Notes: generated by a model from the sequence alone, not told the origin. Counted from the whole stretch's first letter, positions 3,256-53,916 are shown. The stretch is 62,232 bases of DNA, filler included, from Rhabdomonas costata (GCA_019059605.1; 30 parts of 30 records of this genome joined end to end with filler, not necessarily neighbours in it), one strand, 5' to 3'. A program made the numbers and translations.

Positions 3256-3340
3256 ATGATTAGAATAAGCTTGGCCCTTCAGTTCACCCTCCTGGCGATG
3301 CTCTTTGGAGTGGTAGCCGCCTCTCAGGACAACAAGAACG
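3256..3340 (+). CDS. First exon of a secreted or membrane protein (signal peptide)
   Basis: ATG at 3256 gives MIRISLALQFTLLAMLFGVVAASQDNKN (basic n-region, hydrophobic core, VAA-S cleavage-like site), then donor G|GTACGT. Confidence 0.55.
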
Positions 3341-4954
3341 GTACGTTGTGGCTTCTACGGTTTTGTTTCCTCTCGGTTTTTTTTGACACCCGGGAAGGCG
3401 AGTTCCTTGGTATTGGCTTTTCTGCGTTGGTGTGGTTGTTTGCGTAGCCGCAGTATCTCTTTTTTCCTTCGGGCTCTTTCCCCATTTCTTTTTGTTATTT
3501 CTTCATTACTGCACGTCTCTCCCCTGGCCTTTGCGCACGCAGAAATCCAGGGTGGCAATGAAACTGGACGTTGAGAACTTTTTTGCCATGGTTTTACTCA
3601 CCCGTGACCTCAGCTTTTGTTCGCACTTCCCTCAGTGAAGGGGGGTGGATCTTCACGGTCACGGGCATCTTCCCTTTCCCGCTGCCCCAACCGCCCGGAC
3701 ACGGGACAGAGTATCACAGGCTTCACTTTTTTCTTGTCTCTATTAATTTCATACAAGAGCAGAAAACACACCCGCACCTTTCTCGGTTTCTCGACTGTTT
3801 GGCACGTTCCTTCTTTCTTGTGCACAGCGAAGTTCCTTCCTTCTTCGTGCACACAAATGCAACTGATGTTCCTCGCTTCTGGGCCTGGGGTTTTGAGTTG
3901 CTTTGTACTTTCCGAAAGTTGACTTTGGGGATCACTGTTAGAACCTGTGCGGGCATATGTCGAGCCCAATCTTTCGGCTGGTGCTGCTTAGCAGTAGCAT
4001 GTTGACATAGGAGCTGGGGTCTCTGACTGCCATCGGTTCTGGCACGTTTTAACAACACAANNNNNNNNNNNNNNNNNNNNNNNNNNNNNNNNNNNNNNNN
4101 NNNNTTAATTAATTAANNNNNNNNNNNNNNNNNNNNNNNNNNNNNNNNNNNNNNNNNNNNGTTTTGTTTTGTTATGAGGGGTGGGGGCTGCGGAGGTTTT
4201 GCGACGGCGCCCACGGCCGTGCCGCGAGGCCACAGGCTATTCAGGAAATGGAAAGGGCGGGTAGGCGGCAGTCGCTGAGCAGAAGCTTCTGTGAGAAAAC
4301 GCTCTGCGGGGACCTGCAACTCCTGTCCTGATCAATCAACACCCAATACAGCACCTGCACCTCATTCTCACCCCAATACCGCCGACCTTGTGGTGGTTGC
4401 CACTTGTGCTTGGCGCCGTTTATCACTGAGCTGTCGGCACCCCGCTTGTCAACAGACCTGAAGATTTTTTTGGGGTAAAGGCATTGGGGTGAGGGGGAGA
4501 GCGGTGCCGGCGGCGCGATGCGTTTTTGGGGTGGTGGCTTTCCCCGTGAGTCCTGATTTCCAACATCCTATGTCTGAGAAAACATTTTTTGCAGCGTCCT
4601 TAAAAGGAGAGGGTTTGTTTTTATGCTAGAGTGCACAACTAGCCTCCCCCTCCATCCCTCCCTCCCCTAATGTTACTGGTACCGCACCTGAGCAGACATG
4701 CTTGCTGTTTTGATGGTACAACTTGACCATGCTCATTTGTCCACTTGGGCCCGCACCAGCGACACCACAATGCATCGGAATTTGCCAAAGAAATGCCAGC
4801 GTTACAGATAATAAAACCCGATTCCCAGGAATCCCAGGAATGCCAACAGCGGATGTCACCCCAGGTTTCATCAACCCGTACAAAAATGCGTTTGGGTGTG
4901 TGTGCCCTCTTTTTCTGTGGTGGTTGCTTTTTCGTGTGTGCCCTATGGCCTCAG

Positions 4955-5403
4955 ATGAACGACACCTTCGCCCGGATGGCTGCTGTTGTGGACAAGCAGA
5001 ATGCCTCGGATAAGAAGTACAAGCCGATGGCCACGGTTCTGCACGGCAGCCTGGCATACGCGGTTCGTCCCCAACGCCCGCTCCCCTCCCCTCATCTCAA
5101 AAATTACGTTTTTACCTTGAAAGCTATTCTTCGGTTTACTCTGTGTATCTGTCGCTGTCTCTTTCTCACCAACGTCAGGATACTGCCATCGAGTTCGACG
5201 GGGGGGAAGTGGGTAAAATTTTGGGTCCATAGGAACCATCCTCTGTCAAGCGTATTGCTCACACCACTTTTGGGTCGATGTGGTCAGTGTTTGAGGCTGC
5301 CGACACAGGGATTCCCTGCCCGTTTCAGTTATCACACACATCGCCATACATCGTCTTCAGGCCGCCATTGAGATGGTGCACCAGGGCATGAACACGATGA
5401 ACG
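4955..5403 (+). CDS. Two exons of an unidentified protein
   Basis: Exons 4955-5062 and 5361-5403 have CAG acceptors and GT donors, compatible phase and GC3-rich codons: MNDTFARMAAVVDKQNASDKKYKPMATVLHGSLAYA|AAIEMVHQGMNTMN. Confidence 0.5.
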
Positions 5404-6829
5404 GTACTCGCTTGCCTGCTTGTGTGGAGTGCTTGGGGTGATAGGGTTCCCGAGACTAATGGCCCAAAGGCCGCTGGTGCAACTCCCAATCGTGCCCCTG
5501 CTGCGTGTGCACATGGGGGTGCGACTTTCTCAGCCCTTCTTCAAGGTTAAACCCGAGCCAAGGACCTTTTTCTTTACGCAAGACCCCAGGCCTGCTTCGG
5601 CTTAGCCCTGACGTTTTTCTTTGCTCACATAAAATTCTGCCAGACCCTCGTTTTACCCACCTTTGAGCAGACATAACCCACCCTAACCAATGGCAAAATT
5701 CACCGTGAAAACGCTACGTCGGACCTTGTTGCTATCCTCTCTTTGCTTGATGTGCTCACTGACTACTGTTGTGGAACGCCCTTCGCAGTGGCCTATTTGT
5801 TTAGCTAAAAAATGCATCTTGTTGGTTCCATCAACGATACCTCATTCCAACGCTGCGAGTTCTAAAACGACAATTCAGAAAGTGTGACCCAGAAACGTCC
5901 GGCTTTGCGTTCACAGGGTACACGGAGCCTGTTCTCCACCGAGTCCGCCGCGCGGTGAAGGCCCAAGCGAAAAAATGACCCCGGAGGCTGTGCCACCTCT
6001 GAGATATATACACGCCGGCGAGAGTGCCCTCCTGCTTTCAGTCCTTTTGTGGAGGTGGGCAAGAAGCTCACTTGTTGCTGTGCTGCCATATATATTTCGC
6101 CCCCCCAGCGGTTGGCTCGGGGTTGCCCGACCACCCAACNNNNNNNNNNNNNNNNNNNNNNNNNNNNNNNNNNNNNNNNNNNNTTAATTAATTAANNNNN
6201 NNNNNNNNNNNNNNNNNNNNNNNNNNNNNNNNNNNNNNNGTTGTTTTGGGTTTTCCTTCTGCCTTCGTTCTGCTTGGACGTGCGCGTTGGGGAATTGTGT
6301 GTGTGTGTGTGTGTCAAACGCAAATAATAGTCCCTCCTTATTGTATGCCTGCTGTATGCTGCCTGCGTGCGTGGATTTGTTCGTGTGTTTGTGTATGTGT
6401 GTGTGTTACGACAGGACATTGAGTGGGAGGTCAACAACAATCTGTTCCGACACTGTCGCACAGTGTGGGACTCCATGCTGCTCTCCAAGCAGCTCGCGCT
6501 TCTGAAGGTCGGAGTTTTGGGGTGAGAAAGGGAGTGTTGACCGAAGTGGGGCTGAGAGCAAACATTCGGAATTGCTTTGTGGACACGAGGGGCCATGTGT
6601 TGACTACTCGCGTTTCAATATGGACCGAGTTTGCTCTACCGATTCGCAAGTTGGGGCCCCGTGTGATTCTCATAGGAGCATACTTCGTACTTACTGCCAC
6701 GAAAAAAGTGCTTCTCTGGGCTTACTTAAAATAGAATTTAAAAAACGCGACGGCAGATATGAAGAACAGGAATAGCATGAATTGAATGGTTTTTCGCAAA
6801 GACGGCCCATTGTATCCTGTTATCTGCAG

Positions 6830-6958
6830 CAATGCCTGGACATCTACCTCCACATTGAGGTGCACCACGTGGACCGGCCGTGGCTCCGCGCTCACTTTGG
6901 GCGCGCCCGACAGCTCCCCTTCCACTGGAACCCCCAGCTGAAGATGTTCGAGCACTGA
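6830..6958 (+). CDS. Terminal exon of an unidentified protein
   Basis: After CTGCAG acceptor: QCLDIYLHIEVHHVDRPWLRAHFGRARQLPFHWNPQLKMFEH*, with strongly GC3-biased codons. Confidence 0.5.
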   Translation, partial: QCLDIYLHIEVHHVDRPWLRAHFGRARQLPFHWNPQLKMFEH

Positions 6959-7767
6959 GAGAGGCTCCCGTAGCCACTCCATATCACTTCTTGTCTCCCC
7001 ATATGTGGGGCCGTGGGAGAAGCGGCTCGCTGGGCACCACCACCTTTTCCTCACAGACCTCTTTTGCTGGGCAATTGTGAAGTGTTAGGAGCAGACTGGG
7101 ACGATCGGCAGCTGCCGCCCTTCAGAGTGCCACAGTTTTGAGTGGGAAGTGTGCCGTTTTTTGTCGTTTCTGAACGCCATCAGCGGGAACTCAGGTGCCA
7201 TCTCTGCGCACAAAGTTCATCAACCCGTCCCAGCAAGCAACAACCCCCCAACATCTTTTGCGAGATGTTGTCCCAAAGACCCGCAAAAGCAGAGAGCCTT
7301 TCCCCTTTGTCTTCCGAGAAGGATGGCAACAAAAGGCTCCCATCACTCGTCGTCGTCGTCGTCGTGGTGGGCCGATAGGGAGTGTTGGTTGCGGTGACCT
7401 ACACTTGGTGGAAGAGGTGGAGGAAAGTGTTCAAGATCCTAATTAGCATCGCACCGTCAAAAGTGTTGAAGGTGGGTTTCGGTTGTGTTTTCCTTGTAGC
7501 CCGTCACAAGTTTTGCCGCCCGGAGCTGCGATAAGTCTGAATTTGCATCATCCTTTTTCATATTTGAGCGCGGGGGAGTTTCCTTGCCGATAACACTCTC
7601 TAACTCAGCCCCGGTCACGGGGTTGTCATGAACACAGTCGTGGCAACTTGAAAACGATTCACCAAACGTGATTGTTATCAACATCATCATCGCGTCCATT
7701 TTCCATTACCCTGTCTCTTTTGATCAGTGCTCAGTGCTCGTTGGCGTCCCGGGGGTGTTTTTGACGA

Positions 7768-7861
7768 ATGGTGCGTGTGAAGAGGGGAGGCAAAGACAAG
7801 CCGAAGCCGAAGCCGAAGCCGGAACCCAAGGGTCTCCCGAAAGGCAAGCTCCCCGCTAAAG
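7768..7861 (+). CDS. Possible first exon, Lys/Pro-rich
   Basis: MVRVKRGGKDKPKPKPKPEPKGLPKGKLPAK followed by G|GTTTGG. The downstream exon phase was not resolved. Confidence 0.35.
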
Positions 7862-8328
7862 GTTTGGTTGCTCCAACCCGGTGCTTTTCTTTTAATTGCG
7901 CCACCTCCTATGAAAAAGACAACGCTTTCCCCTTCTGGAGGCTCATCTCATTCATGAAGCAGGTACTGAGCCACTTGTACTCGGGAGCACAGCTCGCAGT
8001 TTGTGGCTCTGGCAGCTACTCCTTTTCCTGTAGGTGAGTCAGGTGGGCGAGTACAGGAATCCGCATCTGCTAAACGACAAAAACCGATCCTTTTTTGAGA
8101 TTTTATTTGCCGACCACGGTCACCGGAGAGACCGGAACGTAGTGGAGGGATCTCACGACCAGCAGAATACAGCCCTGTCGTCACTCCCCGGCATAAGCCG
8201 GTACGTTCCCCCCAACANNNNNNNNNNNNNNNNNNNNNNNNNNNNNNNNNNNNNNNNNNNNTTAATTAATTAANNNNNNNNNNNNNNNNNNNNNNNNNNN
8301 NNNNNNNNNNNNNNNNNGTTTTGGTGTA

Positions 8329-8405
8329 AGGAAAAGGAAATGGAAATGGAAATGGAAATGGAAAGGAAAGAAAAGGAAAAGGAAAAGGAAAAGGAAAAGG
8401 AAAGG
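8329..8405. repeat. Purine-rich (GGAAAT/GGAAAA)n simple repeat
   Basis: Tandem GGAAAT then GGAAAA units are directly visible. Confidence 0.9.
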
Positions 8406-8831
8406 GGGAATCAGGAGAAGCAAGAGGTCTGGACATAAACGATGCACCAAGTGGAATCAAACCTCCGACAGGCGCGTAGTAATGCTAAGCAGATGCTGGT
8501 GAAGAATAATTGAGAAAGGAGCTCGAAGCCTGAGGCTGTGGGACGCGCAACAATGCGAGCCCGCGGTTTGCTTTTTTTCCTATCCACTTTTTGCGTTCTG
8601 TTGTGTCTGGAGCTCTCTTCCGTCATCCCACCATCCCACCGATGTAAAAGATGGTGCCGTCCTTAAAACACCGACCGCAAGATCTTACCCCATTCCCGCC
8701 ACCCTTCTCAGGGGCTACAAGTGACCAAAACGAACATCGCTTGGTTTGATCAACTAAAAAATAAAATGAATGAAAACGAAGTGAATTTGCGACTTCGCCA
8801 AAGAAGGACAGGAAGAAAGCCACGGCAATAC

Positions 8832-10087
<1,256 letters not shown>

Positions 10088-11438
10088 TCACCAAGCAATG
10101 CCGACATCAATGTCAAGCTGATGTTCAATGCAATTATATTGAACATTATTTGTATGGTGTTCCTTTTCATCCATCTTTGGGGTCCTCGCTTTCAGCCCTT
10201 CTTCTTTTAGCCCTCTCTGTAGCCCAAATCGTAACACATTACACAGCGAACCAACGAAACCACCTGGGAATAATGTGAATTAGTTTCAACAAAAACCNNN
10301 NNNNNNNNNNNNNNNNNNNNNNNNNNNNNNNNNNNNNNNNNTTAATTAATTAANNNNNNNNNNNNNNNNNNNNNNNNNNNNNNNNNNNNNNNNNNNNCTG
10401 GAAGCCCCACTTCCTCCCGGGGAAGCGGAGGGCTGCTGGGGCGGCTCTGCGGAGACTCCTCCTCGGCGGTAGTGGAGGACCACGAGCTGCCGGGGCTGAT
10501 GCACAGCTTTGTCGAGCGCAGTGGGCTGTACAACAGCATGGGTGTGTGTGGTGCCCTTAGGGGGCCTTAGGGGTTCCACGTCCTCAACTACGCACTCCCG
10601 ACCGATGTTCGCTCATTTTCTAACTGAGAGGTCACTTCCAGCTGCCGTAGTATTGGCGATGGGACTCGGGTGATCGGGTGGGACGCATATTGTTGTACAT
10701 CATTGTGCGGGAGTGGATGCGTCCATCCGCATCCAGTCCCGCACAATGTGGTAATTTTTGTATGTTGACTGAACTGGTGGATGTGACTGAGGGTGGGTGG
10801 GTGGCAGGCTGCGTTTCGCAAAGGCTTCACCATTACCGATTACTAGCTGCTGTCGCACTCACACCTATGTGACTTTTGAAGACCCAGGTCTGTGTTGTCT
10901 TCTTTTACAGTTCACAAAAATGCAAGCCCATAACAACCCTGTGCAGGGCACGAATCTGCTTGCTGTGTTTGCAATGGAATATATTGGACTTCCGAATCTT
11001 CAGCGGCGCAGTTAACGACAACAGCTTTTTATTCCCTTCTTCATCCCTTGATTTGCTTCGGTGTTTCCTATTCATTTTTCCACAGACTCGGTCTCCCAGT
11101 ATCTTTCCCTGGACTGCTGCTGGAGGGGACTCACCGCGCTGTGCTGGAAAACCTTTGGAGTCCGAATCGAGCCGCTGCCCATCGCCCCCTTTGAGCGATG
11201 GCACAAAACCGTTAGGTCTCACCTTGACCACTGCGATTTTATTCTTTTGTTGATTTCCGATTCTGCACCTGTACTGGGCACCATTCTTTATGGTCCGCGT
11301 TGTTAGCGTTAACCTTTTGACCCATGGTGACGGAAATGTTGACGCTGCTTTCGGTTGTTGTTGTTGTGTGGCATCATCGGCATAAAACGATGTGCAGAGG
11401 TGCACGGTTGGAGCTGTTGGTGGGTTCTCCAACCTCAG

Positions 11439-11580
11439 AAAGTTTAGTGTGAGCCATGCCACGGATGGCTTTCTGGGCACCCTGTACATCGACCTGTTTG
11501 CTCGCTCGAACAAGCTGGCCTCTGGGGGCCACCTCACCGTGCAGACGGGCTGCCGACTCCACGACGAAGTCTTGGACCTG
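11439..11580 (+). CDS. MIPEP: Mitochondrial intermediate peptidase (M3A family) internal exon
   Basis: KFSVSHATDGFLGTLYIDLFARSNKLASGGHLTVQTGCRLHDEVLDL fits the M3A/MIP segment LGxxYxDxxxRxxK...HxT...G. CAG acceptor and GTGTGG donor. A probable upstream exon lies at about 10398-10545; its frame is ambiguous. Confidence 0.75.
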
Positions 11581-12501
11581 GTGTGGGCCCAACCTCCACC
11601 CTCACCCCTTCCAAAGCTTTTGCAGCAGTTCCCCTCGAACTCAGAGTTCCCGGAAACAGGACGCCACACATGGAAAAAGACCTGCCTGCCTGCCTCTGAC
11701 TAGTGCCTCTGACAGTTGAATAACAAGTTGGTGAATAGACCTGGGGAGTACATCTGGGCTCAACTCAGAAGTGTGGAGTAAGTCAGGGGTATTTCGACTC
11801 TCGGGTGCATGATAGATTTCAAGTGTTGTTGGGTGCTAGTTCATTTATGGGCCTCCTCCCCCCCATTTATGCTGCCCCCTGCCCTTCAGTAGGGCGGATC
11901 CACCCTATTTGAGCAGTGAAGTACTTTTATGGACCCCTTCCTGAGAGTGCAAGGGGGTGGGAGGCGAAGAAGACACTTTCCGCGAATCACGTGTCCCTTG
12001 GGACTCTTTCCAGGGTGTCTTGAGCCAAACTTGGCCCAAACTCCCAGGAGCTTTCTTTTATTGGACATGCATGTGTGGAGTACAGCAGAGATGGAGGGAC
12101 TTAAATGCACTTACTAGGGGGGGGGCATTAATGCACTTATGCCTTTGCTGCTGTGCTTTGTTGATAATTTGCTTGGCTCGCTCCTGTAACTTCGTTCTAT
12201 TCGGGCGTTCGAGTGAAGCGGGGTGTTAGCTTTTGCACACACGACAGACAAACCACTGTTAGTTGCAGCTGTCTTTGACGGCGCGGTGAAGCCTGTTGGC
12301 GAATGCACTACACATAAATCTTTCTCCACTTCAAAGGTGGACCCCTCCCGGAAGTCCTCAGGCAGACACAACAAANNNNNNNNNNNNNNNNNNNNNNNNN
12401 NNNNNNNNNNNNNNNNNNNTTAATTAATTAANNNNNNNNNNNNNNNNNNNNNNNNNNNNNNNNNNNNNNNNNNNNGGGGTTGTGGAGGTATCAATGTATA
12501 T

Positions 12502-13869
12502 TCATTTTATTTTACTCATATTACATGAACCTGACGGTTGATAATTAAATGGATATAAACAAAATGAATATACATTGATACCTTCACTACAACAATATGG
12601 AAAATGTTGAACTGGTTGAACTAAATTAAAATATCCTGCAGATCTAAAACTTATTCTTTCTTGACCATTTAATAATAATGTTGTACTATTTATTAAATTT
12701 TTACCTGTACATTCGCCATTTTTTATAATGTATGAATCTGTAAAATTAAAATTGTCATTATTAATTGTTTTTGTTAAATATTGTTGTTGTCCTGTCCAAA
12801 CCATAAATTTACATGGTTGATTGAAATCTATTTTTATACTTCTGTTTATTCCTTCTATCGTTTTTTGTGATACATATGTCGTCTGTTCTATTAAATATTC
12901 ATGAGAATTCTGAGAAAATTTTAATCTCTCTTCACTATCTAAGAATATATAATCAACCAATAAATAACAATTTATTAATGATATTATTTGTGTATTATTA
13001 TATGAATAAAAAGATTCTGATGTACTCAATTGTGGATTTGCCGTAAATGAAGATGTTTGACCTGTTATTACATGTTTTGTTGGACTAGTTGATGGCGAAA
13101 TAAATGTTCCATTTATTTTTCGATAATAAAGTTTCTTTGTTACAACATCAAAATATGTAAATTGTCCAACTGAAACAGTATTATCAATATCTTGTACAAG
13201 ATATTCATCACGTATAAAACAAACAATATCTTCTTGTATTAAAATATAATGTGTCGGCGAAATGATATAACATGTATTCAATGATGATAATTCAAGATTT
13301 ATTTTTACATCAGAATATTTTAATGCAACAATAGGAAGTGCAACATTATAATGTCTACAAAACCAAAATTGTAATGGTATATACATCGTATATTGCGGCT
13401 TTCCATTACTATATTCATATAATTCCGGTATATGACCTATCATTTTATCAATTCCTTTATTTTTTGGACCCATTAGTTCATTCCAAATATATAACCATAC
13501 ACCATATTGTTGATCAATCGTCTGACCACCAATTTCAAGTTCAATATTATTAATAATATTGTATCCTAATTTCCTTGTCCATGCAAATAATGTAATTTTG
13601 TCAATATTTCCATAATTATCAACAAATTGTAATATTTGAGGTGTTGTGATTAATACATATATTTTTGTTATAAGATCACCACTTCGTGATAATACACAAG
13701 ATGTCTTTTTTCCAAATGTTGGTGTATATGGAAAATATTGTGGAATACATTCAATCGAAAAATTAGTATGACGTCTATATATAATTTTAAAAAAGGTAAT
13801 TTGTGGCTTATCTGTAATATATAAATCTTCAATTCCTCGACTTACTAATTGTATCATACCACCTGTCAT
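12502..13869 (-). CDS. NCLDV double-jelly-roll major capsid protein family member (Mimiviridae-like paralog), C-terminus truncated by the contig end
   Basis: Intronless 455-aa ORF with MTGGMIQLVSRGIEDLYITDKPQITFFKIIYRRHTNFS, LEIGGQTIDQQYG, YIPLQFWFCRH..ALPIVALKY, VDYIFLDSEER..F....HEYLIEQ and GINVYSFCLYP..QPSGSCNMSKI. The stop codon lies inside a fold-back segment. Confidence 0.96.
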   Translation of the reverse strand: MTGGMIQLVSRGIEDLYITDKPQITFFKIIYRRHTNFSIECIPQYFPYTPTFGKKTSCVLSRSGDLITKIYVLITTPQILQFVDNYGNIDKITLFAWTRKLGYNIINNIELEIGGQTIDQQYGVWLYIWNELMGPKNKGIDKMIGHIPELYEYSNGKPQYTMYIPLQFWFCRHYNVALPIVALKYSDVKINLELSSLNTCYIISPTHYILIQEDIVCFIRDEYLVQDIDNTVSVGQFTYFDVVTKKLYYRKINGTFISPSTSPTKHVITGQTSSFTANPQLSTSESFYSYNNTQIISLINCYLLVDYIFLDSEERLKFSQNSHEYLIEQTTYVSQKTIEGINRSIKIDFNQPCKFMVWTGQQQYLTKTINNDNFNFTDSYIIKNGECTGKNLINSTTLLLNGQERISFRSAGYFNLVQPVQHFPYCCSEGINVYSFCLYPFNYQPSGSCNMSKIK

Positions 13870-13941
13870 TTTATTTAATTTATAAATAAATATTTAAATC
13901 ATGAATAATTTTATTTATAAAATTATTATTAAAAATTAATT

Positions 13942-14405
13942 TTATTCATAAAAAGCCATTCCAGCTAATCCACTCATTATTCTTATAATATTTGTTGATA
14001 ATAAATATATATTTACAACTATAATTTCATTATTACTTTTCATTTGTGTAATTATATCATCTGTTAATGTTACAATTATTTTATTATCATCTAATTTTGA
14101 AAAATTAGCTTGTCCTGATGGTTGTATTATCTCAGGAAATAATGAAAATGAATAAATATTAATCCCTATTGATGGGATTGATGAATGACACATATATGGC
14201 ATTAAATAATTAAAATATTCAATATATGTTGTTTCTTCACGATTACTTCCATTAAATATAATTTTTGCAGTTGTCGCCATATTTTTACTATTATATGTAA
14301 AATCAGTATAATTTTTATTATTTATGTTGGTTGTCGTTTGTAATGTAAAAATCATTTCTTTACATACATTTTGTGTTTTTAATTGTATATCAATCGTCGA
14401 TGATT
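13942..14405 (-). CDS. Second NCLDV capsid-family gene, C-terminal part (5'-truncated)
   Basis: ...TIDIQLKTQNVCKEMIF...IIFNGSNRE..YFNYLMPYMCHS..GINIYSFSLFPEIIQPSGQANFSKL...NIIRIMSGLAGMAFYE* is the canonical MCP C-terminus. The frame is open upstream of the ATG at 14355. Confidence 0.93.
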
Positions 14406-15168
14406 TTATTTTAGAATAATCAACGACGATTGATATACAATTAACAACACAACNNNNNNNNNNNNNNNNNNNNNNNNNNNNNNNNNNNNNNNNNNNNTTA
14501 ATTAATTAANNNNNNNNNNNNNNNNNNNNNNNNNNNNNNNNNNNNNNNNNNNNGTTGTGTTGGGGAGGGGTGGGAGTTGGGGTGACCACGTCAGAAGGGG
14601 AGTCCAACCCACCAAAGCGGGAGTTGGGGCGAAGCCGAAATGAGACCTTTTTTTTTTTTGCGAAAGTTGGGTTCCTTTTTCTCAAAGCGGAATACCAGAG
14701 CAAGTCGTTGGGACAAGTGCAGCACACTGTATACTCAGCGTTACTGTCGAAAACCCTACAGGTAATCTCGCGGCTGGAGAAGGCCCCTGGCAGTTGGAGT
14801 ATGTCACTCACTTCCAAAATGTTACGATTGTTATGATTGTTACGAGACAAACTGACCTCAACGGGGGAGGGGGGAGGGGAGTGCAGTTTCACTTAGTAGT
14901 ACTAATGCATTTCTGCAAGCAAGGAGCACACGGTCGGGTACTTGTTAGAGCACGCCTTGGCAACCTAACATTTGGGGTCAGATAAGCGCGACCAGTTGAA
15001 GTCCCGATAAAATAAGCGTCACACCAAACCCCTCCGTTTTGCGATTAGCCTGGCAGGAAACCTCCCGAATGTCCCTGCAGCACAGCTTTGTTCCTCTGCA
15101 ATAGCTTTCTGAAACTTCGTGCAAAGAAGCCAGAAAAGAAGAGCGTGAGAGGGAGTGATCAAATCGAC

Positions 15169-24587: not shown

Positions 24588-25077
24588 GTAAGGCGCTTGG
24601 CTGTGGCTGAAGACACACACGAACTGTGCGGTGCATTTCTGTACGCATTTGCCTGCAATTCAGTCTCCGTGGCCTGCAATATTCCTTCGATTCAGAGGTT
24701 CCCTTGTCAGGGCCGTTTGACGGGGTGTTTTTCCGAAGCTACGCATCGTCACTGTCCAAAACGAAGAGTGCGCGACTTTCCTGTGTTGGAATGCGATTCA
24801 ACTCCGCGTTTCGGAATCGTATTCAGAATCGTGGGCATATCNNNNNNNNNNNNNNNNNNNNNNNNNNNNNNNNNNNNNNNNNNNNTTAATTAATTAANNN
24901 NNNNNNNNNNNNNNNNNNNNNNNNNNNNNNNNNNNNNNNNNTGTTTTTTTGGCATTCGTTGCTTTTTTTACATCGCTTTTCCTTCTATCGAAGAGTGACG
25001 TGCTCCCCGTATGTTCACCATTCCCACGAGAGCGCAAGCTAACAAAAGAGCGCGAAAAAATTGAGAGGCATGCTAAC

Positions 25078-29096: not shown

Positions 29097-30393
29097 GGGG
29101 GGGCGCGTCGGAGCGATCGGCTGGCGTGTGGGTCTGCGCGGGCTTACGGTGCTGGACAGGAACGGAAGGCGGACCCAAGAGCCTGGGATGGTTCACCGTA
29201 TGGTTCAGAGCAGGCCCCAAGGGGGTGCGCTCTTCCTTGTGCCTTTCCTCCACTGGCACGCTGATCGCTGTAAGCTGACGTGGCAGTAGCTGCGGGGTGA
29301 AGCTCTTGAATCCCTGGCAAAGAAACAAAACAATCAAGTGCAGAATGTTCTCTCACCCCCTCCCCCGTTGGAATTTTGCCGAGGTTTTTGCTTTTTGCTT
29401 TTAACATTAATTACGGTGGCTTCAGTTTTTCCGTTTACTACGCCCTCTCTGGCCCCTGCTGCCGATCTTTCCCCAGCTCCAAAAATATCGAACAAAATGC
29501 GTAAAACTGTCCTAACTAGACGTGTTGCGGATAGCCCGAGAAGGAACAAGTCGGAAAGTCACACACGGTAGATGGAGCTGGAGCGGAGGGAACGGCCGTC
29601 GGGAGGGCGTCCCAGCGTACGTCGTTCGGTATGGTATTCTCCGTGAAGGTGGGGAGCTTCATAGCTCGGCAGACCTCGTTACAGACGTGGTTCTTGAAGA
29701 AATCCTTGATCCCCTTCAGCCCTGTGTCTGTATAGCCGAAACGGCCCTGCTCCACGCTCACCACGGCGGGATCCGTGTACGTCTCTCCCACTCCTTGGAC
29801 GTCGAGAATAATGTACCGGTGGGACGAGTAGACGTACGAAAAATGTGAGAATGCATTGGGAGTGCGTCGATTCGATTCCATCATCCCGAAGATGTTGTTG
29901 TGCTTCTCCCAATGCCCTGGCAGTGAGAAAACAAATACCCTCCGAGAACGGAAACGTTGACGAAGCAAGCACACCAATTGGTCGAAAACACGTAAGTGAA
30001 TGTGCCACAGTGTAAACAAGGAACACACACCCTCCAAGAACTTTTCAATGCTGTAATTGTGCTCTCCCAGAGTCAGGATTTGGTTGGGAACGAGGTATTC
30101 CACTGCCTTCGGAGGCGTCAAAGCATTGAAAGCCTGCGCGCACTCCGAAGCCATGTGAGCACAAACATAATCTTCCAGAAATGCATCAGAGCGAAGGTAG
30201 CGCTTTGCCACCATCTTGGGACCCCACTGGCCATCTTTTTCCTTGAAATAGGCGTAGAAGGCCTCACGGCAACCTCCGTGCGCAAATGGTCGCGACTCAA
30301 CGCGAACTTCATGAACCTCCGTGCGAAGAAGCTTAAAGCTGTCTCTCACCCCCAGGTCGTGCACTTTCAGGGTTCCCACTCCAACAGGCATTG
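29097..30393 (-). CDS. Alpha-kinase (eEF2K/MHCK-like), 3 exons, partial
   Basis: Exons 30393-30031, 29916-29567 and 29313-29097: PFAHGGCREAF, VAKRY, IEKFLEG|HWEKHNN, AFSHFSY, DVQGVG..YTDP, FGYTDTGLKGIKDFFKNHVCNEVC (Gly-rich and zinc-binding motifs). Confidence 0.95.
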
Positions 30394-30801
30394 CTACTGG
30401 CGGGATTCAAAAGATCAAAAGGAGCATTTCTGTGATCATGGCAATTTGCTCACCGTTCATCCGTGATCACCGAAAAGGAAAGAACCCAACGGCAAAACAG
30501 GCATCAGCACGAATTCCGTGTTCGAGTCCACTACAAGTTGGAAAAGCACGCGATAACAAATGGTAATAAATAATCGGCGCAGTCGGGACAGCGACACCGA
30601 CTGTCGTGGAAAACGACCCCCAGCTGGAAACTTGCGTCGACGGCCAAAGCAACAAACCTTGCCCTTCTTCGCATTGAATAGTAAGCTGATTTTCTTTGCT
30701 TCGAGCTGTGGCATCGCCCGTAGTTTCAGTGAACTTCACAGGTAAGGATTTACAAAAACGGGTTTCTAATGGTTCAACTCCGGAATTTGAAGAACAACAA
30801 T

Positions 30802-41556: not shown

Positions 41557-43058
41557 TGTTTTTTTGGACTGTCGCCTGGGAACGATGGGTTCGGAGTTCG
41601 AAATTCTCACGGTGTTGCGCCGCGCGGTTTTCTTTCCGACCCTCCCGGTCATCCTGCTGGGAGTCAATCTTCTGTCTGCTTCCATTCGGGCCGTATTGCT
41701 TGCCTGGCTGAATGACCACAGGGACGAGGCTGAGCTCGGGCCCATCGCTCTTATTTTCACCTCGAGCAACGGCGCCGATGCTTTCAGTGGCTTCAGTCCG
41801 ATGAAGTTAGAGTCGGGCATTGCCGATCAGCCGCAGTGCAGTACCTCCGCTCGTCTTGCAGTGAGGGACCGGCTGAAGACTCGCAGGGTGATGCACCTCG
41901 AGTCCGTCCGAGGAGAGGCTCGTGCCGGGAAGTCCACCTACATCCGCCGAATGATCAGTGAACATCTTGCAGGGAGCCAAGGTGCTGCCCGAGGTGGGCC
42001 GGACTATACCATTGCCATCAACGAGGACTTCAGCCCACGATCCGTCATGGGCTTGCTTGAGTCCTCAGGCAGACACCAGGAGATCGTGATTCACTTCAAC
42101 GTTTCTGCATATTGCAACTTTGTCTCCGCGAATGCCTTTCTGGAAGGCTTCCTGCTGTTCGGCCTCATGGTTGATCATGACAGTGGTTCCTTGGCCTTGC
42201 TGCCAGAAGTGCCTCTGCGGGCCTATGTGGAGGTGGCGCTCGCTCCCACCACGGAGACGGAAGGCAGGGAGCGGTATGCCAGCTTAGACTTCATAATGCG
42301 GTCTCTGCCTGCAGTACGCCTGTGTGCGCAGCTGGTGGACTCTCCTGTGGTCCCGCTGGTTTCCTCAGACAGTCCGGCTGAGCAGCGGGATCTGGGGCTG
42401 TTCTACCGGTGGACCCGGGAGTGGCGGGCCAACGCACTTTTTTCGGGGCTTCGCACGCTGCTTGATGCGGACCCCCTGAGTCCTGCAGAAATTGAGCAGG
42501 AAAGGCGAGAGCTGTTTGCGACGACCTTTCCCGCCTTCGGGTGGCGGAAACCCGAGCTGCCCGCGGACCGCCGAAGCTTTGAGCTTCTTGTCGTGGACCG
42601 CTTTCAGTTCTTACTCTCATACTACCGCTATGGTCGTGAACACGACGTTGAAGCAACCTTGCTTCGCCCAGAAGTTCTTCTGGAAAGGTATATTGGTGAG
42701 GCGGCGAGGCTCTGTGAGAGCCCTCTTGAATCTCGGATCTCCACCCGAGAGCTCAAGCTCTCTGTGCGGGGGCTTCCACCAAAAAACCCCCCTGTCCTTA
42801 GCTTCCTGGACTTCTCGTTAGCTCCTCGGCCAGCCGCACATCTCCAGCTATCCGTGCTTTCCTACCAGAGCGCATGCCAGAGCCCAGCTGAGCTGCGTGC
42901 CAATCTGGGATACTTGCTGGGAATCTCGAACACCGATCTGGTGCTCTACTTGCTCCAAGAGGCGCAGTACATCCTCACCCCGGACGCCCTGGTGAAGAAT
43001 GTGCTTCTGCGAGAGAAGCAGAAGTCCGGGCAAGATGCGGTTCTGGTTGGGGACACAG
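41557..43058 (+). CDS. RNF213/mysterin-like AAA+ protein, large internal exon
   Basis: Walker A GEARAGKSTYI, then IAINEDF..., IHFNVS..., and YILTPDALVKNVLL....SGQDAVLVGDTG, which parallels RNF213 YxLTxDNxxK...IPVIIMGETGCGK. Donor G|GTGTGT splits the next Walker A motif. Confidence 0.82.
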
Positions 43059-43279
43059 GTGTGTTTTCGCGCGAGGGGCAGGTAGCGGGACCTTCTAAAA
43101 AACCTTTACGTTTGTCGTTGCTGCTCTTTGTTGCAAACGCCATCGCTGCTTTTCTTATATAGCAACTTAAAATTACACTGTGACTGATAACTTGCATTGC
43201 TGCCTTGTACTATACAAAAAAACAAACGAAGCTGGTTTTTCATTAGAATGAGAGGTCACCGACCGATGAATCTCCAGTT

Positions 43280-52545: not shown

Positions 52546-53916
52546 TTACTTCTTCGGCTTAGTGGCCTTCGCAGGAGCTGGGGTCGAGGGTGCGGGCTCG
52601 GTCGTCAGGTCGATGACCTTCGCCTTTGCAAAGATCAGGAAATGGCCGGCAGAAGGGATTTTTTCTTCTGCGCTGACGCGTGCGTCATTGCAACACCACC
52701 AAGCCATGCCGTTTCTTATCCACGCCACCCAGTGGCCGGGGCGAGCTTCCACTGTTGCCACGACGGTCATCGGACTCCTTCCCAGCACGAAGTCTTTGAT
52801 GTCCACCTTTGTCTCGGGAGTCGGCGCCCAGAGCTCTACAACGACATACTGCCCCTGAACGAGCCAGTCAACTTTGGCAGTGGCTTGCATGCCCCCAGGT
52901 TCACAGGGGCAGTCCACGGAGGACAGGGTGAGCTCCTCTCGGGCGCTCTTCTCCACGACCTCCGCCAGGTCAGTCGACTCGCCAGCCGGAACCATCACTG
53001 TGAACTGGTTCACCGGCTGACGGCGAATGGGTTTCTGGCACTTTGGGCAAGTCACCAGCAATCTTTTGGTAACTGCGCACGCTGGAGGAGCTGCGATGCT
53101 CAGCAAAAGGTGCCAGATCGACCTGGCATCTTCGGAGCTCATCGGGTTGTTGTGGAGCGCAACTCTGCGCTTGATCAGTGCAAACGCTGCTTGAAGATCC
53201 AGGCTGGCTGGGGTGTTGCCTGCGCCAACGAAGGCGATCAGCTTCCCAATGGTGGTGAGCAACTCTCCCCTTTCTGCTTGTGTTCCTGGGCAGGTGAACG
53301 CCACGGAGAGCTCGCGACAGCTGGCCACACACTGCAGCACGGCGTTCATCCCGCAGCGGATGAGCGGCTCGTTAGGAAGAGCAGGTGGCTTGTAGCTCAC
53401 CACGACCTCTGCGTCTGCATACTGCTCCGAAAAAGAGCGAATGAGGCCTGATTCCGTCGCTGGGTCAGGGAGAGGAACAGGCCAGCGCTTTTCGCCAGAA
53501 GGGCGAAAAAGCACCACGTGAATGACAGGCTTCCCCATCCACGGGATTCCTTCAAGCTCTTTGAATCTTGCCCAGCCCAAAATGTCAAGTTTCGCTCCTT
53601 CCGCAAAGAGCTGCTTGATCGCGGCATTGAGCAGCGCGCGGAAACTGGGCAGTTCTGCTCCAGGAAGCGCCCACCATTCTGACAAGAACTTCAGAACGCG
53701 CCGTACGCGGAAGACGAACTCGAACTGCTGGCCTCCCAGTGTTGTGAGGCAGAGCTGAAACTCTGCAAACCTTTGCGTTGGCCGTCTGCCCCTGGACAAA
53801 CAAACACCAGGAATTTCCATCCTCATTCGGTTCCTCGCACTTGGAAGAAGCAGCGCAACCCCCGCATTATACAAATTGGTGCGCACCCTGACACCCCCCC
53901 TACTTGATATGTTCAC
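52546..53916 (-). CDS. Divergent ubiquitin-specific protease (USP/C19-like) with an uncharacterised N-terminal region
   Basis: Cys box PNEPLIRCGMNAVLQCV, SEDA, zinc-finger CPKC...CPC, His box PGHWVAWIRNGMAWWCCNDARVS. Uninterrupted frame of 456 codons. The true start may be a splice acceptor at 53791 (TTGTCCAG) or the ATGs near 53820. Confidence 0.78.
   Translation of the reverse strand: MNISSRGGVRVRTNLYNAGVALLLPSARNRMRMEIPGVCLSRGRRPTQRFAEFQLCLTTLGGQQFEFVFRVRRVLKFLSEWWALPGAELPSFRALLNAAIKQLFAEGAKLDILGWARFKELEGIPWMGKPVIHVVLFRPSGEKRWPVPLPDPATESGLIRSFSEQYADAEVVVSYKPPALPNEPLIRCGMNAVLQCVASCRELSVAFTCPGTQAERGELLTTIGKLIAFVGAGNTPASLDLQAAFALIKRRVALHNNPMSSEDARSIWHLLLSIAAPPACAVTKRLLVTCPKCQKPIRRQPVNQFTVMVPAGESTDLAEVVEKSAREELTLSSVDCPCEPGGMQATAKVDWLVQGQYVVVELWAPTPETKVDIKDFVLGRSPMTVVATVEARPGHWVAWIRNGMAWWCCNDARVSAEEKIPSAGHFLIFAKAKVIDLTTEPAPSTPAPAKATKPKK

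Follow-up and report, generated by a model that had tools for sequence, protein, structure and literature searches.

The capsid gene pair and its contig

The stretch of DNA discussed here, the window, comprises 62,232 nucleotides from the Rhabdomonas costata assembly GCA_019059605.1. It is made up of 30 contigs, each 1975-1989 bp long, with N44+TTAATTAATTAA+N44 as the spacer between one and the next, and neighbouring contigs are therefore not physically linked. One of the 30, a contig of 1978 bp at positions 12476-14453, carries parts of two capsid-family genes and is the subject of this work. Its GC content is 24.3%, against 46.3-55.5% in the other 29 contigs, so that the strong AT-richness noticed in the original prediction stands out clearly from the background of the window. 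Every 200-nt bin of the contig lies between 14.5 and 28% GC, therefore host-like DNA is found at neither end, and about 95% of the contig is occupied by open frame. It had been proposed that the two genes lie on the same strand, 72 nt apart, and both the Pfam matches and the frame coordinates agree with this, the strand being the minus strand.

The upstream gene, gene 1, enters from the right-hand end of the contig as a frame of 169 codons (14451..13945, minus strand) closed by a TAA at 13944-13942. Homology to the capsid family begins at residue 13 of this frame, and the part that can be assigned to the gene, the 3' end of a capsid-family paralog cut on its 5' side, spans 13942..14417 (about 157 codons plus the TAA). 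It matches Pfam Capsid_NCLDV over positions 26-196 of 196 (E 2.3e-27, 96.4 bits, cut-off 34.8), and the region matching Capsid_N would lie off the contig. A spacer of 72 nt on the minus strand (13870..13941), contained in a 200-nt bin of 14.5% GC, separates the TAA from the ATG of gene 2 at 13869.

Gene 2 has an open frame of 455 codons that runs from this ATG to a TGA at 12504-12502 on the minus strand. The chance of such a frame at the composition of the contig is about 2e-20. Codons 1-454 (12508..13869) are assigned, from Pfam, the alignment of homologs and a structure model, to a putative double jelly-roll capsid paralog of ~510 aa from which ~54 codons at the 3' end are missing; homologs have 484-554 aa. 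The protein matches Capsid_N with an E-value of 4.5e-45 (154.2 bits, cut-off 24) and positions 1-143 of the 196 of Capsid_NCLDV with an E-value of 4.2e-32 (111.9 bits, cut-off 34.8). Both genes thus score above the curated Pfam cut-offs, and the capsid identity proposed for them is borne out by the profile search.

The fold of the gene 2 product was examined with an AlphaFold model, which has a mean predicted local distance difference test score (pLDDT) of 87.9 and a predicted template modelling score (pTM) of 0.84. The model aligns with the major capsid protein of Emiliania huxleyi virus 201 (EhV-201) over 329 residues (Z 32.9, root mean square deviation (rmsd) 3.4 Å) and with a capsid protein of PBCV-1 (Paramecium bursaria chlorella virus 1) also over 329 residues (Z 32.2, rmsd 2.6 Å). 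The capsid proteins of faustovirus (Z 32.6), Singapore grouper iridovirus (SGIV, Z 31.6) and African swine fever virus (ASFV p72, Z 28.4) are matched as well. As judged from the model, gene 2 encodes a capsid protein with the double jelly-roll fold. In sequence, the closest solved structures are PBCV-1 capsid proteins (E 1e-53 with the single sequence), in a set of structures that includes no Imitervirales capsid protein. With a profile of the gene 2 subfamily, the PBCV-1 proteins are matched at 1e-101 to 5e-93, faustovirus at 1.7e-8 and ASFV p72 at 6e-7 to 1e-6. PBCV-1 Vp54 and its minor variants have the same fold as gene 2 (Z 29.6-32.2, rmsd 2.5-3.1 Å over 306-329 residues); however, identity in the core is 30-34%, and ~125-150 of the 455 residues of the gene 2 model are outside the shared core. 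PBCV-1 belongs to another order, Algavirales.

A central insert had been described in gene 2. The segment in question, residues 205-252 (13114..13257, minus strand; PTHYILIQ...LYYRKI), lies between the two Pfam matches, and a private insert was considered and rejected. The segment is gapless in 13 of 13 aligned homologs, with P205, I209, E222, Y223, Q226, F237 and D241 invariant. In an alignment of 74 sequences P205 remains invariant, and conservation reaches at least 90% at I209, E222, Q226 and D241. The model predicts five strands within residues 205-252, with a pLDDT of 92-96 in the blocks covering residues 201-260. Because it is present and conserved in all 13 homologs aligned, this beta-rich segment is not an insertion of gene 2 and belongs to the architecture of the subfamily. 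Immediately past it (alignment columns 293-317) gene 2 is shorter than its relatives by 17-25 residues.

Both ends of the contig fold back on themselves. On the left, positions 12479-12512 repeat 12557-12590 as their reverse complement (34 nt, 91%), with an exact core of 23 nt at 12486-12508 and a loop of 44 nt. On the right, 14418-14452 is the reverse complement of 14371-14405 (35 nt, 94%), with an exact core of 21 nt and a loop of 12 nt, and 33 of 36 positions match up to the last base. All 60 contig ends of the window were scanned for fold-backs with at least 25 of 30 positions matching. Both ends of this contig score 28 of 30. Among the 58 ends that belong to the other 29 contigs, four also have a fold-back, and scores at the other 54 are 13-18 of 30. 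The four ends belong to host-type contigs and lie at 24942 (left), 33148 (right), 33249 (left) and 58182 (left), with 26, 28, 30 and 25 of 30 positions matching within 300 nt. The occurrence of fold-backs across the data set suggests a class of chimeras such as arises from amplification or assembly artefacts, and because they are also present at these four other ends, those of contig 12476-14453 are probably an artefact of the library or the assembly. The imperfection of the arms (91-94%) is unlike the product of a pure k-mer artefact and speaks against this; the fold-backs may instead be a real rearrangement.

The fold-backs determine how the two genes end. The outer arm on the right (14418..14452) has no homology to the capsid family, the Pfam match of gene 1 starting immediately past it, and is probably artefactual. 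Homologs of gene 2 continue for ~54 residues past the motif NMSKI, and gene 2 diverges from them at codon 455, exactly where the terminal inverted repeat starts. Codon 455 and the TGA at 12502-12504 are supplied by the outer arm on the left (12479..12512), therefore the stop that gene 2 seems to have is probably without biological meaning. The frames had originally been called intact. This was not upheld: the N-terminal part of gene 1 and ~54 C-terminal residues of gene 2 are missing, and each frame is cut at a fold-back end of the contig, so that the incompleteness of the genes reflects the contig ends. More generally, fold-backs of this kind create false stop codons, and stops at contig ends should not be counted as real in the annotation of this assembly.

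Within the cut frames the genes are well preserved. No internal stop was found in the 605 native codons of gene 1 and gene 2. These codons offer 347 possible single substitutions to a stop, and if only substitutions at uniform rates are considered, the frames would stay open at P=0.05 only up to ~2.6% neutral divergence. Of the 63 columns with a conservation of at least 90%, gene 2 departs from consensus in one, where it has F376 in place of Y. In the remaining 73 sequences the median is 3 such departures (range 0-14), and in 69 of these sequences the number is no lower than in gene 2. Its terminal branch in the tree described below is 0.33, against a median of 0.44. No sign of erosion was seen in the genes of the contig, whether stops, frameshifts, mobile-element insertions or relaxed conservation. 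The open frames and the retention of conserved columns suggest that both capsid genes are functional or were so very recently.

Relatives of the two genes and affiliation of the virus

A search of 5.8 billion proteins with gene 2 gave matches at E <=0.001 for 7527 of the 8000 scored candidates, with a best identity of 57%. Both capsid domains are present in all 120 matches listed, and no name beyond 'hypothetical protein' occurs among them. Shorter proteins reach 60% identity while covering 38% of the query, and the best identity among 1.84 billion cluster representatives is 50%. The clusters of the closest proteins are likewise named only 'hypothetical protein' (10 of the 10 looked up), their Atlas phylum being Nucleocytoviricota, and some close homologs are on contigs of 0.4-1.5 Mb. 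Near-identity to a known laboratory virus, which would point to contamination, was looked for among these proteins, and none was found. With no public protein more than 60% identical, the contig does not come from a known or laboratory virus.

Named relatives were sought in BFVD, a structure library of cluster representatives. For gene 2 the first match is a capsid protein of Terrestrivirus sp. (E 2.3e-57, 49% identity, TMq 0.89), which is placed in Klosneuvirinae by NCBI taxonomy, and the second is weaker by thirty orders of magnitude. Terrestrivirus sp. is an unclassified member of Klosneuvirinae whose genome was obtained from a soil metagenome. Its protein, annotated 'NCLDV major capsid protein' (A0A3G4ZLR0, 521 aa; NCLDV, nucleocytoplasmic large DNA virus), shares with gene 2 the architecture of ~510-520 aa with a conserved middle segment. 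Only about half of the residues are identical, however, and higher identities, up to 57%, are reached by unnamed metagenomic proteins; since BFVD holds cluster representatives, other klosneuviruses may be equally near to gene 2.

The model of gene 1 (pLDDT 82.7) retrieves only Mimiviridae at ranks 1-13. The 13 matches are to Hyperionvirus (twice), Fadolivirus, Faunusvirus, Harvfovirus, Terrestrivirus (twice), Indivirus, Bodo saltans virus (BsV), Mimivirus LCMiAC01, Yasminevirus, Catovirus and Klosneuvirus. A look-up in NCBI taxonomy, which covered all but Klosneuvirus KNV1, places 11 of the 13 in Klosneuvirinae and Faunusvirus among the unclassified Mimiviridae. Several of these viruses have enlarged capsid paralogs that resemble gene 1, namely Fadolivirus (1442 aa, 37% identity), Catovirus (1433 aa), Hyperionvirus (1451 aa) and Yasminevirus (1453 aa), although identity is only 20-37% and the N-terminal part of gene 1 is off the contig. 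Megamimivirinae are distant from gene 1: 'capsid protein 3' of Moumouvirus and Megavirus is found at ranks 37-39, and F8V5X8 of Acanthamoeba polyphaga mimivirus (APMV) at rank 40 (E 1.2e-5).

The length of the gene 1 product can be approached through its relatives. Its best database matches are long proteins (1358, 1612, 1753 and 1273 aa; 27 matches). A maximum-likelihood tree of the C-terminal domain was built from 80 rows and 166 columns, after five of the 85 selected rows with fewer than 70 residues in the region had been dropped, P0280, the best match of gene 1, among them. In this tree gene 1 groups with 7 paralogs, which are 1106-1753 aa long (ultrafast bootstrap (UFBoot) 99 / SH-aLRT 94). 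In all six long paralogs examined with Pfam, Capsid_N is split and Capsid_NCLDV comes after it at the C-terminus. As far as its place among these proteins indicates, gene 1 most likely represents the last jelly-roll of a long capsid paralog of >1000 aa. One of the long proteins, P0283 (1753 aa), has at residues 897-1050 a weak RCC1-like/WD40_RLD match (26.6 bits, cut-off 150), at most a hint at the make-up of the giant insertions. Gene 2 belongs to a different clade of 13 members, the other twelve of ~500-546 aa (support 100/99), and a quick tree is concordant.

Are the two genes the product of a recent tandem duplication? This was considered and rejected, as they are 36% identical over 111 residues and belong to different, well-supported clades; judged by these sequences, gene 1 and gene 2 are old paralogs. 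It had been proposed that adjacent capsid paralogs occur in related viruses, and they are indeed recurrent among the closest loci in IMG/VR. Another capsid-family open reading frame (ORF) is found inside the fetched flanks of 16 of the 22 closest loci and none in the other 6. In nine of the 22 such an ORF lies directly upstream on the same strand, with a spacer of 31-76 nt in five cases. Members of the gene 1-type and gene 2-type clades adjoin on the same strand, long then short, in L004 and L008, and convergently in L016 and L021. Since capsid neighbours recur in related loci, the tandem arrangement is a known, recurrent feature of this viral group. These relatives are also AT-rich, the 23 loci L001-L023 having 20-37% GC. 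Mimivirus, too, has several capsid paralogs close together, as in the window and in L002, L008, L013 and L021; the Mimivirus cluster comprises R439-R441.

The IMG/VR loci contain further capsid clusters. L002, on a record of 102 kb, has three capsid paralogs at 3272-13342, two of 526 and 620 aa on the same strand and one of 613 aa on the opposite strand, adjoining a VLTF3 gene. Two capsid-family ORFs that run off the start of their locus, one in L010 (3-5924, at least 1974 aa) and one in L012 (2-5944, at least 1981 aa), are situated 76 and 56 nt upstream of a gene 2-type paralog; they are among the longest capsid paralogs encountered. A more distant group (L022, L026, L027, L030, L032, L036, L049/L050, L064 and L075) has capsid paralogs of ~400-515 aa that follow one another head to tail, three to five in an array, with spacers of ~60 nt.

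Taken with the ranked matches, contig 12476-14453 very probably derives from the genome of a giant virus of Mimiviridae (Imitervirales) that is undescribed and closest to Klosneuvirinae, and covers part of its capsid-gene cluster. The Imitervirales origin suggested in the original prediction is thereby supported and can be stated more precisely as klosneuvirus-like, the nearest named relatives of both genes being Klosneuvirinae. L021, whose capsid protein is 52% identical to gene 2, lies on an IMG/VR record of 357 kb, and genes for MutS_V, for asparagine synthase and for two class-I aminoacyl-tRNA synthetases (tRNA-synt_1) are present on the same record. A set of MutS_V, asparagine synthase and aminoacyl-tRNA synthetases typifies Mimiviridae. 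BsV (Theiavirus salishense) would be of the same subfamily by nearest-neighbour evidence and has a similar base composition (25.3% GC, against 24.3% in the contig, with a host at ~50%). It has four capsid genes, one of them enlarged to 4194 aa, as given in the available portion of its description (PMC5871332). BsV is nevertheless a different virus from that of the contig; its capsid piece is found at rank 43 for gene 2 (17% identity) and at rank 8 for gene 1 (33%).

Several points weigh against this affiliation and the description of the gene pair. The contig is only 2 kb long and comes without PolB, A32 or VLTF3 from the same genome. The assignment to Klosneuvirinae relies on ranked BFVD matches and NCBI taxonomy labels, the trees holding unnamed metagenomic rows only. 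That gene 1 is a long paralog is concluded from 155 aligned residues on a long branch (1.13), with its N-terminal part missing and its best single match, P0280, lost from the tree alignment. The upstream neighbours in L006, L009, L010, L012, L015 and L018 group elsewhere in the tree, with weak support. The early promoter motif AAAATTGA and hairpin-type 3' ends are known from work on Mimivirus. The motif does not occur in the contig and is found 3 times in the whole window, where 4.35 are expected. No significant terminator-like hairpin is present in the 72-nt spacer (minimum free energy -13 kcal/mol, z -1.26, 27 of 200 shuffles as stable). The check for promoter and hairpin covers this one intergenic region of 72 nt, and capsid genes are late genes.

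It is highly improbable that the contig belongs instead to the Asfuvirales lineage described from endogenous elements of Euglena gracilis. Those elements have a similarly low GC content and duplicated capsid genes, according to the available part of their description (Jivaji et al. 2025, PMC12455990). However, the gene 2 profile is far weaker on faustovirus (1.7e-8) and p72 (~1e-6) than on PBCV-1 (1e-101), and ASFV B646L appears at rank 42, with 12-13% identity, in the BFVD searches of both genes, which are led by klosneuviruses. With its capsid far from those of p72 and faustovirus and klosneuviruses leading, the contig is placed outside the published Asfuvirales lineage and, as argued above, near Klosneuvirinae.

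Origin of the DNA

How did DNA of a klosneuvirus-like mimivirid come to be in this assembly? Giant-virus fragments are common in eukaryote assemblies, and NCLDV core genes were listed for an assembly of E. gracilis as early as 2017, both as stated in the accessible text of PMC5294986. Three sources can be considered: an endogenous element of the sequenced organism, a free virus of that organism, and a virus of some other organism in the sample.

That the contig is an endogenous giant-virus element in the nuclear genome of the sequenced organism, separated as a small contig by low coverage of AT-rich DNA, is a real possibility, if one to be held tentatively. If the assembly is from a euglenid there is a precedent, since eight integrated elements of 25-35% GC are described in the E. 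gracilis genome of ~51% GC in the portion of the report at hand (PMC12455990). They have a coding density of >90% and full-length duplicated markers, including capsid genes, and every one of them is placed in Asfuvirales; CP87_12, an outlier at 25.4% GC, is termed a potentially distinct lineage (same portion of PMC12455990). The likeness lies in low-GC viral DNA with capsid genes in a euglenid; the E. gracilis elements differ in being Asfuvirales and integrated, whereas contig 12476-14453 is klosneuvirus-like, with gene 2 far from p72 and faustovirus, and shows no host junction within its 2 kb. The contig is also as short as its host neighbours, which hints at host-like or lower coverage and not at a high-copy virus. 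On the other hand neither of its ends is host-like, although a contig this short can hardly weigh against integration. It carries no stop, frameshift or mobile-element scar, only one of its 63 conserved columns is changed, and its open frames tolerate at most ~2.6% neutral substitution. The 5.8 billion proteins searched, which include assemblies of public runs, hold none more than 60% identical. For a fixed insertion in a much-sequenced species a near-identical public protein would be expected, and the lack of one is weak evidence against such an insertion, unless the assemblies of that species come without called genes.

The original prediction had preferred a free virus that infected or persisted in the sequenced organism when the DNA was prepared. 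This now appears unlikely. Active infection usually leads to high viral coverage and long viral contigs, and here there is a 2-kb contig that ends in fold-backs, the only one of low GC among the 30 contigs of the window. A short contig of host-like size would thus argue against a high-copy infection. In favour of a free virus, the coding sequence equals genuine viral homologs in its conservation, no lengthening is seen in the terminal branch of gene 2, and Klosneuvirinae include BsV, the only isolated giant virus of a euglenozoan (available parts of PMC5871332 and PMC8061765). It had been argued that intact frames and the absence of drift toward host GC favour an active or recent virus. This argument turned out to be weak: the integrated elements of E. 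gracilis keep 25-35% GC and full-length markers, as far as the available text of PMC12455990 goes, therefore neither low GC nor open frames favour an active virus over an integrated one.

The DNA may also be that of a virus of another organism in the sample, such as a co-cultured amoeba or flagellate, prey or carry-over, or a trace contamination, which is possible but somewhat doubtful. Klosneuvirinae are mostly known only from soil, wastewater and marine metagenomes, and the known isolates except BsV infect amoebae (Fadolivirus and Yasminevirus on Vermamoeba); both facts count for such a source. Members of the group from soil metagenomes are described in the accessible part of PMC6243002. The nearest relatives of gene 2 are all unnamed metagenomic proteins, and there is a single short fragment, whose coverage is probably low. 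A known laboratory virus is not involved, as the best identity of 57-60% indicates, and the other 29 contigs are homogeneous at 46-56% GC, with no second organism evident in the window, which at 60 kb is weak evidence.

The remainder of the window gave few recognizable features. An Rfam scan of the whole window had no matches, hence neither ribosomal RNA nor spliced-leader RNA was detected. A 296-codon frame at 29519-30406 (minus strand), in a host-type contig, contains a full alpha-kinase domain (Pfam PF02816, E 4.4e-33) and is the clearest piece of a host-type eukaryotic gene in the window. It points to a eukaryote but to no particular taxon, its matches in the protein Atlas being generic eukaryotic clusters with Ascomycota the most frequent. 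Two long frames, 41558-43159 (plus strand, 534 codons) and 52549-53916 (minus strand, 456 codons), are both in contigs of ~55% GC; no Pfam family scores above its cut-off in either, and a weak UCH match (E 0.0018) was obtained for 52549-53916.

Proposed role and significance

The contig would be part of the capsid-gene cluster of a klosneuvirus-like mimivirid. In this cluster the last jelly-roll domain of a long capsid paralog, presumably of >1000 aa, would be followed by the 72-nt spacer and by most of a ~510-aa double jelly-roll paralog, and both ends of the contig would be fold-back joints formed in library preparation or assembly. From their fold and family, both products would be structural proteins of the virion that form trimeric, pseudo-hexagonal capsomers. 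The authors who described BsV propose that its enlarged capsid paralog forms the fibrous halo of the particle (available portion of PMC5871332). Nothing on the function of capsid paralogs was found in the accessible part of a paper on the mimivirus interactome (EMBO J 2026, PMC13186993), and a paper on methylation (MBE 2025, PMC12344493) offered nothing of relevance in its accessible part.

A klosneuvirus-type capsid gene pair is known already; what is new is an undescribed virus that carries the arrangement of a long paralog followed by a ~510-aa paralog. Taken alone, the fragment amounts to 2 kb of capsid genes, the metagenomic clade of which is well populated, and its value lies in follow-up. 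If the virus is one of the sequenced organism, the pair of capsid genes, with no close public relative, would be a specific marker for the polymerase chain reaction, read mining and microscopy.

Very few viruses of Euglenozoa are known. BsV was named in a 2021 review as the sole documented DNA virus of Euglenozoa (PMC8061765, available text), and eroded Asfuvirales insertions in E. gracilis were added by the 2025 paper (PMC12455990, available text). Should the fragment come from a virus that has the sequenced organism as its host, another lineage of giant viruses, the second and distinct from the first, would be added for that host group. It is rather unlikely, on present evidence, that a klosneuvirus-type mimivirid unrelated to the Asfuvirales elements of E. 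gracilis is truly associated, by infection or by recent integration, with a euglenozoan other than Bodo saltans. Such an association, if true, would give Euglenozoa a second giant-virus lineage and would be the second klosneuvirus-euglenozoan pair, and it would hint at a long-standing link between Klosneuvirinae and Euglenozoa.

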